Part shown: in pieces, positions 50,496 through 54,452 of the stretch
Layout: every line of letters starts with the position of its first letter
Numbering within the stretch: position 1 is the first letter of the stretch
Origin: Escherichia coli
Lineage (GTDB): Bacteria; Pseudomonadota; Gammaproteobacteria; Enterobacterales; Enterobacteriaceae
DNA: 64,000 nt
Assembly (NCBI RefSeq): GCF_003790525.1
Contig: NZ_CP033635.1
Reading direction: 5' to 3' (one strand)
The notes under the pieces: generated by a model
What the model was told of the DNA's origin: nothing
Seen by the model: only the letters and a program-made list of their open reading frames with translations
Databases searched by the model: none
Program-made: the position numbers and the translations under genes

Positions 50496-50500
50496 TATCT

Positions 50501-50529
50501 TAAGCCCTCTCCCGGTAGGTGAGGGCTTA
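50501..50529. terminator. Bidirectional hairpin between the convergent ggt and yhhY genes (TAAGCCCTC/GAGGGCTTA)
   Basis: 9-bp inverted repeat with an 11-nt loop in a 60-bp gap. Confidence 0.55.
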
Positions 50530-50555
50530 AATGACAAACGTAGATTGCAAATTCT

Positions 50556-51044
50556 CTATTTCACCCGCGCCATATAATACGCATCGACATATTCACCATT
50601 ACGCAGCGCGTACTTCTTGCCAGTCCCTTCAATCTCAAAGCCAAATTTTTTATAGACCTTAATTGCTGGCGCGTTATCGACGAACACCGTTAGCTCAATA
50701 CGATCTACCCGCAACCAGTTGTCGCACATTTCAATCATCTCTCGCATCAGGGCGCTGGCGACGCCGCGGTTCTTCCAACGGGAGTCGACACAGATACCAA
50801 AGTCGGCAACATGACTGCGGTGTGGGCGTTGTTGCACGTCAATGGTGAGATGGCCTACGACGATTCCATCAATACAGGCGACTAACTGCTTGATGCCGGG
50901 GCGAGCGGTGAGTCGTTCCAGCCACATTTGTTCTGAAGGATGAGGCACCTGTAGCGTGTTGTAATACACCTCCGGCTGGGCGTGAATCTGCCTGATGGCC
51001 TCGTAATCGCGTGTTTCTGCGTGGCGTATTACTATCTCACTCAT
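50556..51044 (-). CDS. yhhY: GNAT-family N-acetyltransferase YhhY
   Basis: Start at MSEIVIRHA (162 aa); GNAT motifs. Confidence 0.88.
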   Translation of the reverse strand: MSEIVIRHAETRDYEAIRQIHAQPEVYYNTLQVPHPSEQMWLERLTARPGIKQLVACIDGIVVGHLTIDVQQRPHRSHVADFGICVDSRWKNRGVASALMREMIEMCDNWLRVDRIELTVFVDNAPAIKVYKKFGFEIEGTGKKYALRNGEYVDAYYMARVK

Positions 51045-51144
51045 TCCTTTGTCCTCTTTGGGGTAAATGTCCCTTTCAACATCATTGACTTTCAAATGCG
51101 AGTCAAATGCATTTTTTTGCAAAAAGTGTTGGACAAGTGCGAAT

Positions 51145-51163
51145 GAGAATGATTATTATTGTC
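51145..51163 (+). promoter_or_regulatory. Fur box overlapping the ryhB promoter
   Basis: GAGAATGATTATTATTGTC closely matches the Fur consensus and lies immediately 5' of the RyhB +1. Confidence 0.8.
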
Positions 51164-51165
51164 TC

Positions 51166-51255
51166 GCGATCAGGAAGACCCTCGCGGAGAACCTGAAAGC
51201 ACGACATTGCTCACATTGCTTCCAGTATTACTTAGCCAGCCGGGTGCTGGCTTTT
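51166..51255 (+). ncRNA. ryhB: Iron-responsive small RNA RyhB
   Basis: Sequence GCGATCAGGAAGACCCTCGCGGAGAACCTGAAAGCACGACATTGCTCACATTGCTTCCAGTATTACTTAGCCAGCCGGGTGCTGGCTTTT matches RyhB as I remember it, ending in an intrinsic terminator (AGCCAGC/GCTGGCT plus T9). Confidence 0.92.
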
Positions 51256-51377
51256 TTTTTGACCTTTCGTTCTCAATTTATCCTCGGGAAGTGCTTGTGT
51301 TCGTTATGCGCACTCCAGTAGGAACCACGTCCGCTTTGCGCTAAGGTGTAAATAACCACCTTAAAAAGGACGAAATC

Positions 51378-52415
51378 ATGGTCATTAACTGCGCCTTTAT
51401 TGGCTTCGGCAAAAGCACCACCCGTTACCATCTGCCGTATGTACTTAACCGCAAGGATAGCTGGCATGTCGCGCATATTTTTCGCCGCCATGCGAAGCCG
51501 GAAGAACAGGCCCCCATTTATTCCCATATCCATTTCACCAGCGATCTCGACGAAGTGCTAAACGATCCCGATGTTAAGCTGGTTGTCGTCTGCACCCACG
51601 CGGACAGCCACTTCGAGTACGCGAAGCGCGCGCTGGAAGCCGGGAAAAATGTGCTGGTCGAAAAACCGTTCACTCCGACAATTGCGCAGGCGAAAGAGCT
51701 GTTTGCACTGGCGAAAAGCAAAGGGCTGATCGTTACGCCGTATCAGAATCGTCGCTTTGATTCCTGTTTCCTGACAGCGAAAAAAGCGATTGAAAGCGGC
51801 AAGCTGGGAGAGATTGTCGAAGTGGAAAGCCATTTTGACTATTACCGCCCGGTGGCAGAAACCAAACCTGGGCTGCCGCAGGATGGCGCGTTCTATGGCC
51901 TTGGTGTGCATACGATGGACCAGATTATTTCTCTGTTCGGTCGCCCGGATCACGTCGCTTATGACATCCGCAGCCTGCGTAATAAAGCCAATCCGGACGA
52001 CACCTTTGAAGCGCAGCTGTTTTATGGCGATCTAAAAGCCATCGTCAAAACCAGCCATCTGGTGAAAATCGATTATCCGAAATTTATCGTTCACGGTAAG
52101 AAAGGTTCGTTTATTAAATACGGTATCGACCAGCAGGAAACCAGCCTGAAGGCTAATATTATGCCGGGCGAACCGGGATTCGCAGCGGATGATTCGGTCG
52201 GTGTGCTGGAGTATGTCAATGACGAGGGTGTGACGGTCAGAAAAGAGATGAAGCCGGAGGTGGGCGATTACGGGCGCGTTTATGATGCGTTGTATCAAAC
52301 CATCACCAACGGTGCGCCAAATTACGTCAAGGAATCTGAAGTTCTTACCAATTTGGAAATCCTTGAACGCGGTTTTGAGCAAGCCTCTCCCTCCACAGTG
52401 ACTCTCGCGAAGTAA
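51378..52415 (+). CDS. yhhX: Gfo/Idh/MocA-family NAD(P)-dependent oxidoreductase YhhX
   Basis: 345 aa; N-terminal Rossmann fold. Confidence 0.88.
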   Translation: MVINCAFIGFGKSTTRYHLPYVLNRKDSWHVAHIFRRHAKPEEQAPIYSHIHFTSDLDEVLNDPDVKLVVVCTHADSHFEYAKRALEAGKNVLVEKPFTPTIAQAKELFALAKSKGLIVTPYQNRRFDSCFLTAKKAIESGKLGEIVEVESHFDYYRPVAETKPGLPQDGAFYGLGVHTMDQIISLFGRPDHVAYDIRSLRNKANPDDTFEAQLFYGDLKAIVKTSHLVKIDYPKFIVHGKKGSFIKYGIDQQETSLKANIMPGEPGFAADDSVGVLEYVNDEGVTVRKEMKPEVGDYGRVYDALYQTITNGAPNYVKESEVLTNLEILERGFEQASPSTVTLAK

Positions 52416-52537
52416 GTTTGATGGCCCCTCGAATAGTTCAATTTTTTTGAACAGAGGGGTCAATTTTCACCCTCTATCATCCCAGGCAGATCGGGTCCAC
52501 ACTAAGCCCATCGAAAACATTCAGGGGGCGAATACAA

Positions 52538-53233
52538 ATGATCTACTTACGCAAAGCAAATGAACGTGGTCATGCAAATCATGGCTGGCTGGATTCCTGG
52601 CATACTTTCTCTTTTGCCAACTATTACGATCCGAACTTTATGGGCTTCTCCGCGCTGCGCGTGATTAACGACGACGTGATTGAAGCAGGGCAGGGCTTTG
52701 GCACTCACCCGCATAAAGATATGGAAATTTTGACCTACGTGCTGGAAGGTACTGTTGAGCACCAGGACAGCATGGGCAATAAAGAGCAGGTTCCGGCGGG
52801 TGAGTTCCAGATTATGAGTGCGGGTACGGGTATCCGTCACTCTGAGTACAACCCAAGCAGCACCGAGCGTCTGCATCTGTATCAGATCTGGATCATGCCT
52901 GAAGAAAACGGCATTACGCCGCGTTATGAACAGCGTCGCTTCGATGCCGTACAGGGCAAACAGCTGGTGCTCTCGCCGGATGCGCGAGATGGTTCGCTGA
53001 AAGTGCATCAGGATATGGAACTGTATCGTTGGGCATTGCTGAAAGATGAGCAGTCGGTGCATCAGATTGCCGCTGAACGCCGCGTCTGGATCCAGGTGGT
53101 GAAAGGCAATGTCACCATTAACGGCGTGAAAGCCTCGACCAGCGATGGTCTGGCAATCTGGGATGAGCAGGCAATCTCCATTCATGCGGATAGCGACAGC
53201 GAAGTGTTACTGTTCGATCTGCCGCCGGTTTAA
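52538..53233 (+). CDS. yhhW: Pirin-like cupin, quercetin 2,3-dioxygenase YhhW
   Basis: 231 aa; metal-binding His residues of the pirin family (HPH...H). Confidence 0.88.
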   Translation: MIYLRKANERGHANHGWLDSWHTFSFANYYDPNFMGFSALRVINDDVIEAGQGFGTHPHKDMEILTYVLEGTVEHQDSMGNKEQVPAGEFQIMSAGTGIRHSEYNPSSTERLHLYQIWIMPEENGITPRYEQRRFDAVQGKQLVLSPDARDGSLKVHQDMELYRWALLKDEQSVHQIAAERRVWIQVVKGNVTINGVKASTSDGLAIWDEQAISIHADSDSEVLLFDLPPV

Positions 53234-53456
53234 AACTCAACGGCATCTTTGAAGCCTGCCTTTTTGCAGGCTTCCTCGCTCGCTCCGGTCGCGTGCTGAT
53301 GTACGCGACCGGGGTTTTGCCGCGTCGTTAGCACAATGCGATGCAATTGATTTAGTGTATATCTAATAATTGTAAACAAGCACTGTTTTCCCCGGGAAGG
53401 TTCTGAGGCGTCCGTGTTAAACTAAAAGAATCTATCTCTTTTGTACCTTCAGGACG

Positions 53457-54452
53457 ATGAAAAAGAAAAGACCCGTACTTCAGGATGTGGCTGACCGTGT
53501 AGGCGTGACCAAAATGACGGTCAGCCGTTTTTTACGCAACCCGGAGCAGGTTTCCGTCGCTCTACGCGGCAAGATTGCCGCCGCTCTTGATGAACTGGGT
53601 TATATTCCCAATCGCGCACCCGATATCCTCTCTAACGCCACCAGCCGGGCGATTGGCGTCCTGTTACCTTCTCTCACCAACCAGGTTTTTGCGGAAGTAT
53701 TACGCGGAATCGAAAGCGTCACCGACGCGCACGGTTATCAGACCATGCTGGCCCACTACGGTTATAAACCGGAAATGGAGCAAGAACGCCTCGAATCCAT
53801 GCTCTCCTGGAATATCGACGGCCTGATCCTCACTGAACGTACGCACACGCCGCGCACCTTAAAGATGATTGAAGTGGCGGGGATTCCAGTGGTGGAACTG
53901 ATGGACAGCAAGTCGCCGTGCCTCGATATTGCCGTCGGTTTTGATAACTTTGAAGCGGCACGCCAGATGACCACCGCCATTATTGCTCGCGGGCATCGCC
54001 ACATTGCCTATCTCGGCGCACGTCTCGACGAACGTACTATCATCAAACAGAAGGGATACGAACAGGCGATGCTGGATGCAGGCCTGGTGCCATATAGCGT
54101 GATGGTTGAGCAATCTTCTTCTTACTCTTCCGGTATTGAATTGATTCGCCAGGCGAGGCGGGAATATCCGCAGCTGGATGGCGTGTTCTGTACTAATGAT
54201 GACCTGGCGGTCGGCGCGGCGTTTGAATGCCAGCGTCTGGGGTTGAAAGTTCCTGACGATATGGCGATTGCCGGTTTCCATGGTCATGACATTGGTCAGG
54301 TGATGGAACCTCGGTTGGCGAGCGTACTGACGCCGCGTGAGCGGATGGGCAGTATTGGCGCTGAACGCCTGCTGGCGCGTATTCGTGGCGAATCTGTGAC
54401 ACCGAAAATGTTAGATTTAGGTTTCACCTTGTCACCGGGCGGATCTATTTAA
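53457..54452 (+). CDS. gntR: Gluconate repressor GntR (LacI family)
   Basis: 331 aa; N-terminal HTH (LQDVADRVGVTKMTVSRFL) plus periplasmic-binding-protein-like fold. Confidence 0.93.
   Translation: MKKKRPVLQDVADRVGVTKMTVSRFLRNPEQVSVALRGKIAAALDELGYIPNRAPDILSNATSRAIGVLLPSLTNQVFAEVLRGIESVTDAHGYQTMLAHYGYKPEMEQERLESMLSWNIDGLILTERTHTPRTLKMIEVAGIPVVELMDSKSPCLDIAVGFDNFEAARQMTTAIIARGHRHIAYLGARLDERTIIKQKGYEQAMLDAGLVPYSVMVEQSSSYSSGIELIRQARREYPQLDGVFCTNDDLAVGAAFECQRLGLKVPDDMAIAGFHGHDIGQVMEPRLASVLTPRERMGSIGAERLLARIRGESVTPKMLDLGFTLSPGGSI

Follow-up and report, generated by a model that had tools for sequence, protein, structure and literature searches.

Promoters of the BenM/CatM type, which are controlled by LysR-type regulators, have a site 1 at about -64, a site 2 at about -43 and a site 3 near -12. 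YhaJ is a LysR-type regulator, and yhhW is one of its published targets: hydroquinone induces yhhW (assayed as yhhW::gfp) only when YhaJ is present, and induction is lost in a yhaJ deletion (Palevsky 2016; PMC5031710). In that study YhaJ shifted a probe of ~300 bp from upstream of yhhW in EMSA, a 16-nt motif with the dyad TCA-N7-TGA was found to be common to five YhaJ targets, and the yhhW mutations C-99T and T-91C/T-92C strongly reduced induction. ChIP-seq in EHEC subsequently placed a YhaJ peak at yhhW in vivo (Connolly et al. 2019; PMC6765310). The motif of another target, yqjF, is quoted in the literature as TCAAATTTTTTGAAGA. According to a 2025 paper, the recognition and activation sites of YhaJ, the -10 and the start site had yet to be assigned.

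The window analysed here is a 64,000-nt stretch of Escherichia coli DNA in which ryhB, yhhX, a spacer, yhhW and gntR follow one another on the + strand. The spacer (52416–52537, 122 nt) extends exactly from the yhhX stop codon to the yhhW ATG. Identity to E. coli strain SC516 is 100% across 351 nt, and the stretch is found in 5,424 of 5,426 complete E. coli genomes. Since the spacer differs from that of K-12 MG1655 at a single base (52517), the K-12 literature can be applied to it directly. The earlier note on this DNA had described two mutually exclusive hairpins in the spacer and proposed that they form either a simple terminator for yhhX or a conditional read-through element for yhhW. We consider it likely that the spacer contains two ordinary elements that overlap, a YhaJ-dependent promoter of yhhW and a 3' hairpin of yhhX. 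The relevant features are:

51378–52415, + strand: yhhX open reading frame, annotated as yhhX in K-12 and SC516
52413–52415, + strand: yhhX stop codon, TAA
52423–52430, + strand: arm A, GGCCCCUC, the 5' arm of an outer RNA stem, present only where yhhX lies upstream
52436–52452, unstranded: inner palindrome GTTCAA-T5-TTGAAC, including a T7 run at 52442–52448, with TTCA and TGAA invariant
52438–52450, unstranded: published recognition box of the LysR-type regulator YhaJ, TCA-N7-TGA, a T-N11-A box
52454–52461, + strand: arm B, GAGGGGUC, the 3' arm of the outer stem, which also lies within the invariant promoter core
52460–52472, unstranded: putative second YhaJ site, TCA-N7-CCC, in a block invariant in 79–81 of 81 sequences
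52462–52469, + strand: tail after the stem, AAUUUUCA, a weak U tract with 4 U in 8
52469–52474, + strand: segment C, ACCCTC, the 3' arm of the second hairpin, within the conserved promoter core
52474–52480, unstranded: CTAT(C/G)AT, invariant, containing a candidate -35 region CTATCA (18-nt spacer) or, in a rival layout, a -10 TATCAT
52495–52503, unstranded: GTCCACACT, invariant in 81 sequences, containing a putative weak -10, CACACT (52498–52503)
52509–52516, + strand: CATCGAAA, conserved, containing a putative start site at A52510
52523–52528, + strand: Shine-Dalgarno-like AGGGGG of yhhW, 9 nt upstream of the ATG, in a conserved G-rich block
52538–53233, + strand: yhhW, start codon 52538–52540, annotated as yhhW in K-12 and SC516

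A small ORF that starts at the ATG at 52421 (MAPRIVQFF and a stop) was rejected as a gene because ATGG occurs in only 19 of 81 sequences and its frame shifts among genera. Directly upstream of yhhX, on the same strand, lies the gene of the RyhB sRNA (Rfam RF00057, 83 bits; 51195–51259), which has a promoter match, TGGACA-18-TATTAT, at 51130–51159 and a strong terminator at 51234–51252. Co-transcription of ryhB and yhhX was considered possible, though not demonstrated, by Morita (2015). Farther upstream (window ~50500–51200), ggt adjoins yhhY in SC516, the strain that matches best, and yhhZ and more genes follow yhhY in K-12; this difference in gene order between K-12 (L001) and SC516 (L002) suggests an island between yhhY and ggt.

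To compare the spacer across the family we used 80 Enterobacteriaceae loci, one per species or lineage, collected with YhhW as query, which together with the window give 81 sequences (individual loci carry L numbers below). Conservation was scored with the sequences anchored on the YhaJ box, and broken pairs were counted on the 72 distinct sequences. The T7 run that the earlier note had placed between two hairpins is present at 52442–52448, but it lies inside the first hairpin, between its arms, where it is the loop of an inner GTTCAA/TTGAAC stem (52436–52441 with 52447–52452). This inner palindrome with its T run is a DNA-level protein-binding site, which the earlier note had overlooked. The sequence TCAATTTTTTTGA at 52438–52450 is the published YhaJ box itself (PMC5031710, PMC6765310), with no difference from it: counted from the ATG at 52538, the published C-99 is C52439, the C of the box TCA, and counting in this way also recovers the positions published for yhaK (-92) and ybiJ (-120). 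Near-identity to the yhhW box is seen in the yqjF motif and, over ~31 nt, in the ybiJ promoter. Its TCA and TGA are invariant in all 81 sequences, except that the A of TCA is kept in 80. The outermost G-C pair of the palindrome is broken without compensation in 13 of the 72 distinct sequences. Given that this flanking pair is lost uncompensated, the palindrome appears to act as a protein site and not as an RNA stem.

The gene yhhX lies upstream of yhhW, at a near-constant distance, in 74 of the 80 loci (75 including the window). Among the 81 sequences, a core of ~47 nt (52434–52481) is nearly invariant. It is followed by variable sequence (52482–52494), the invariant GTCCACACT, a second variable stretch (52504–52508) and the conserved CATCGAAA. 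All six loci without yhhX have an intact core, which assigns it to yhhW rather than to the yhhX 3' end. These loci come from Atlantibacter (L072, L076, L079), Pluralibacter (L077, L078) and Entomohabitans (L080). In the three Atlantibacter loci ryhB and its terminator lie ~27 nt upstream of the yhhW YhaJ box, and in L072 (positions 2313–2377 and 2404–2501) RyhB with its own canonical terminator directly precedes the core. Two loci have an insertion between CATCGA and the yhhW Shine-Dalgarno sequence, one of ~23–24 nt in L051 (Siccibacter colletis; ~2460–2485), which contains a small inverted repeat, CCTGA-TGGC-TCAGG, and one of ~18–19 nt in L080.

The segments on which the earlier description was built all exist in the window: CCCCTC at 52425–52430, GAGGGG at 52454–52459 (GAGGGGT at 52454–52460) and ACCCTC at 52469–52474. 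Because GAGGGG is common to both hairpins, the two are indeed mutually exclusive in E. coli. They are far from balanced, however: the first has a folding energy of -20.4 kcal/mol, and the inner stem together with the second reaches -14.9 kcal/mol, a gap of ~5.5 kcal/mol. The first hairpin starts 8 nt past the yhhX TAA, is 39 nt long and consists of 8 outer pairs (52423–52430 with 52454–52461), a 5x1 internal loop and 6 inner pairs (-18.0 kcal/mol). The fold of 52416–52480 has a z score of -3.27 for the + strand; the - strand gives -1.71.

Pairing between arms A and B, over 8–10 bp, is found in 69–70 of the 75 loci that contain yhhX, and arm A is absent from the six loci without yhhX. The energies of this fold lie between -13 and -21 kcal/mol nearly everywhere, with the weakest values in L032 (-8.8), L045 (-12.4) and L036 (-12.7). 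In the uncorrected alignment 86% of the cells are paired, a conservative figure, compared with 39–50% when the partner is slid by 1–3 columns. MAFFT left arm A of Escherichia out of register because its loop differs by 2 nt from that of the other genera, and corrected counts were therefore made in Python. Across the 8 core pairs of 70 loci, these give 498 Watson-Crick pairs, 58 G.U, 1 A.C and 3 others; the excess of G.U over A.C indicates that pairing takes place in + strand RNA. About three independent compensatory double changes were found. At pair 4 most loci have U-A, Escherichia has C-G and L061 has G-C, and U.G intermediates are seen in L007 and L032; pair 5 changes from C-G to U-A in L004 alone. 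Uncompensated mismatches in the outer stem occur in L045 and L005. A column-shuffle control for covariation on this stem was not significant, and it is uninformative because most columns hardly vary. In the helix of the second hairpin, none of the 72 distinct sequences has a double change.

Arm A has also been lost from six loci that do contain yhhX (L056, L057, L062, L073, L074 and L075); in L075 the remaining A-B pairing is weak and rich in G.U (-6.3 kcal/mol). A search of these six loci for replacement terminator hairpins gave a convincing one in L062 only. Since arm A can disappear without a consistent replacement, the structure is dispensable, yet it appears to be useful to the cell.

Like the intrinsic terminators of E. 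coli, the first hairpin is a stable, GC-rich stem-loop a few nucleotides past a stop codon, followed by a tail that contains U, and its stem is conserved with tolerance of G.U and with compensatory changes. Unlike them it has a weak U tract (AAUUUUCA), a 5x1 internal loop and a length of 39 nt. Termination cannot be optimised in the tail, the loop and the 3' arm, because these double as the operator and promoter of yhhW. The tail has a TransTermHP-style score of -2.44, whereas the RyhB terminator of this window reaches -5.82, and the terminator scan made no call at this hairpin, the tail falling below the scan criterion of at least 5 T in 8. The tables of Adams (2021) contain no 3' end between yhhX and yhhW; yhhX was perhaps too weakly expressed in those experiments. 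A literature search for yhhW start sites and for 3' ends in the spacer found none, and Kim (2012) gives a start site for Klebsiella yhhX only. The suggestion of a simple yhhX terminator is reasonably well supported for this hairpin by its position, stability, conservation and few compensatory changes and by the + strand character of its G.U tolerance; the weak U tract and the empty result from the Adams tables call for caution. The spacer probably holds a terminator-like yhhX hairpin, which is probably either a modest terminator or a stem-loop that protects the 3' end.

In the K-12 yqjK-yqjF spacer (L083, ~5400–5420), a few nucleotides separate the end of the yqjK terminator hairpin, GGCCGGAGCCATTCCGGCC, from the yqjF YhaJ box. 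This is a second instance of a YhaJ operator bordered by the terminator of the gene before it; Adams (2021) lists a 3' end at the very edge of that box, 153 nt ahead of the yqjF ORF. Within gntR (ORF start 53457) a terminator-like hairpin lies ~50–75 nt into the coding sequence, at 53506–53533 (+), with TGACCAAAATGACGGTCA followed by GCCGTTTTTT. A strong ORF-internal 3' end in Adams (2021), at K-12 3578650 (-), corresponds to window ~53533, inside gntR, and suggests premature termination there. The same source has two 3' ends antisense to yhhW, at K-12 3579057 (+) and 3578999 (+), which correspond to ~53126 and 53184 on the - strand of the window.

The second hairpin, formed by B and C, has a different standing. 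In E. coli it consists of 6 pairs (AGAGGG with CCCUCU) around an 11-nt loop, with an energy of -8.6 kcal/mol as an isolated 23-nt hairpin and -9.4 kcal/mol in the context of 52416–52480, and its equilibrium probability is 0.004 (0.4%). We estimate that a bare 6-bp complement is expected about 1–2 times by chance within 122 nt, so this hairpin on its own does not rise above chance. Its fifth pair forms in only 6 of the 72 distinct sequences (Escherichia plus L032), and an A-U pair of the helix is broken in 17 of 72, by changes such as CCCTC to CCCAC, while B is unchanged. Segment C itself owes its conservation to the promoter core, in which it lies. An Rfam search at E <= 10 over 51000–54000 returned RyhB as the sole match above its family threshold and none in the spacer. 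The second hairpin is fortuitous and occurs only in Escherichia and at a single locus of Salmonella arizonae.

A whole-spacer fold in which A pairs with the yhhW Shine-Dalgarno sequence AGGGGG and B pairs with C was also considered, as a means of sequestering the ribosome-binding site. It was rejected as meaningful because the A-B hairpin forms first and dominates, and because mRNA started at the YhaJ-driven promoter would contain none of A, B and C. Segments A and C resemble anti-Shine-Dalgarno sequences only because B resembles a Shine-Dalgarno sequence.

To place the yhhW promoter, five K-12 YhaJ promoters (yqjF, yhaK, ybiJ, ygiD and yhhW) were compared. In yhhW, TCAATTTT is repeated at 52460–52467, 22 bp after its first copy at 52438–52445. 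With the promoters aligned on the box, NCA follows the box TCA by 22 bp in all five, and a -10-like hexamer lies at +47/48 after the box, again in all five (TATGAT, TACCAT, GATACT and TATTGT, with CACACT in yhhW). In yqjF, ybiJ and yhhW, CATCGA follows this hexamer after 5–6 nt. From this geometry we infer a layout in which the box lies at about -66, the second site near -44 and the start near A52510; this would fit the canonical LysR arrangement. The geometry of ygiD does not fit a -65 layout, because its ATG is only 65 nt after the box. Like the BenM/CatM promoters, yhhW has a strong dyad, followed by a putative weaker site ~21–22 bp on and a conserved block (GTCCACACT) ~55 bp downstream; its half-site sequences differ from theirs. 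Readings of TTGAAC...TATCAT as a sigma-32, sigma-E, MerR-type or minus-strand promoter were rejected by eye, because the hexamers are 22 nt apart and no usable minus-strand -10 is present.

Taken together, these data suggest the following arrangement. The DNA from ~52434 to the ATG is the YhaJ-dependent promoter of yhhW, its palindrome and T run being the published YhaJ box, which acts on DNA. The invariant GAGGxGTCAATTTTCACCCTCTATsATC, GTCCACACT and CATCGAAA would most likely contain the second YhaJ site and the start, along with a -35 that is poor and a -10 that is weak. On a yhhX transcript, arm A would pair with arm B to give the 39-nt hairpin that encloses the YhaJ box, and this would be the 3' stem-loop of yhhX mRNA, either a modest intrinsic terminator or a stem that protects the 3' end after termination. 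Because promoter function fixes the loop, the 3' arm and the tail, arm A alone would be free to evolve, and it would track changes in B. The B-C hairpin would be incidental, and yhhW mRNA initiated under YhaJ would contain none of the three segments.

A second promoter layout is somewhat less likely in our view: TATCAT (52475–52480) could be the -10, with a start at ~52487, the box centred at ~-43 as for a class II activator, and GTCCACACT and CATCGAAA as elements of the 5' UTR. TATCAT has the best -10 score of the spacer (6.6, compared with 1.5 for CACACT), T-A-T-x-A-T is invariant in the 81 sequences with only its fourth base varying, the sequence after it is variable, and AACAAT stands at the same offset (+25 to +30) in yqjF and yhaK. 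However, the second TCA site would then fall at ~-21, which is odd for an activator, the position of a -35 is occupied by CAGAGG, which is none, and the shared hexamer at +47/48 with CATCGA is a better fit to the canonical -65/-45 arrangement. The choice affects details of the promoter and leaves the verdict on the hairpins unchanged, since both candidate starts lie downstream of A, B and C and the hairpins could therefore form only on transcripts derived from yhhX. This bears on the proposal of a conditional element, in which B pairs with A as a terminator or with C as an anti-terminator and so decides read-through from yhhX into yhhW; in a variant, a ribosome pausing at the yhhX stop, 8 nt upstream, could mask A. 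The mutual exclusion of the two pairings in E. coli is in keeping with such an attenuator, as is the position of arm A, which, given the footprint of a ribosome, a terminating ribosome could reach. As in the trp and pyrBI leaders, one segment can pair with two partners. Unlike in those leaders, the alternative pairing is neither conserved nor energetically competitive, the element follows a full-length gene and not a leader peptide, and the downstream promoter lies inside it. The breakage of B-C pairs largely refutes this reading. The energy gap, the small probability of the fold, the empty Rfam result and the published YhaJ-dependent promoter that yhhW has within the spacer also speak against it, and the invariance of C is tied to yhhW, as it persists where yhhX is absent. 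We judge an attenuator or switch to be highly improbable.

Two further alternatives concern the A-B hairpin. It might not terminate transcription at all: yhhX termination could be Rho-dependent or absent, with the stem blocking 3' exonucleases and stabilising yhhX mRNA, or marking a site where a yhhX-yhhW transcript is processed. The weak U tract and the lack of an intrinsic-type 3' end in Adams (2021) agree with this, as does the pattern reported by Dar and Sorek (2018), in which Rho-dependent transcripts end just past stable stem-loops that lack U tracts. On the other hand, four consecutive U stand at the usual distance from the stem, and nothing at this spacer speaks for Rho dependence; this version, which departs from the preferred explanation only in the step acted on, seems unlikely to us. 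The complementarity of A and B could also belong to the DNA, as an extended operator palindrome or cruciform for YhaJ or another protein. In many species a perfect 10-bp inverted repeat, GACTCCTCTG ... CAGAGGAGTC, does flank the known protein site. The ratio of 58 G.T to 1 A.C cells, though, is an asymmetry expected of + strand RNA and not of duplex DNA, arm A vanishes along with yhhX from loci where the remainder of the promoter persists, and lineages differ by -2 to +3 nt in the spacing between arm A and the box (2 nt in Escherichia), which is awkward for a fixed protein contact. A DNA-level role for the outer repeat is thus very doubtful.

Overall, the spacer holds no switch, and the apparent regulatory RNA is for the most part a DNA operator that was already known. 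That the hairpin is built around this operator is the only mildly new point. It is a far-fetched idea that terminator and operator are deliberately interlocked, such that a YhaJ roadblock at 52438–52480, or a ribosome masking arm A, alters read-through into yhhW; if true, it would couple iron status, on the Fur-controlled ryhB/yhhX side, to the quinone-responsive yhhW. For scans of intergenic DNA, the locus illustrates that a palindromic protein site combined with a repeat resembling Shine-Dalgarno and anti-Shine-Dalgarno sequences can mimic a switching RNA, and that the two can be told apart by invariance without covariation and by persistence after loss of the upstream gene. Beyond what is published on the box, the comparison shows that it is invariant across Enterobacteriaceae and adds a likely second site 22 bp on, with a candidate -10 and start; for work on YhaJ biosensors, the alignment and the five-promoter comparison thus suggest where these elements may lie. 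The proper annotation of the spacer is a YhaJ operator and yhhW promoter together with a 3' hairpin of yhhX, and not a candidate riboswitch or attenuator.
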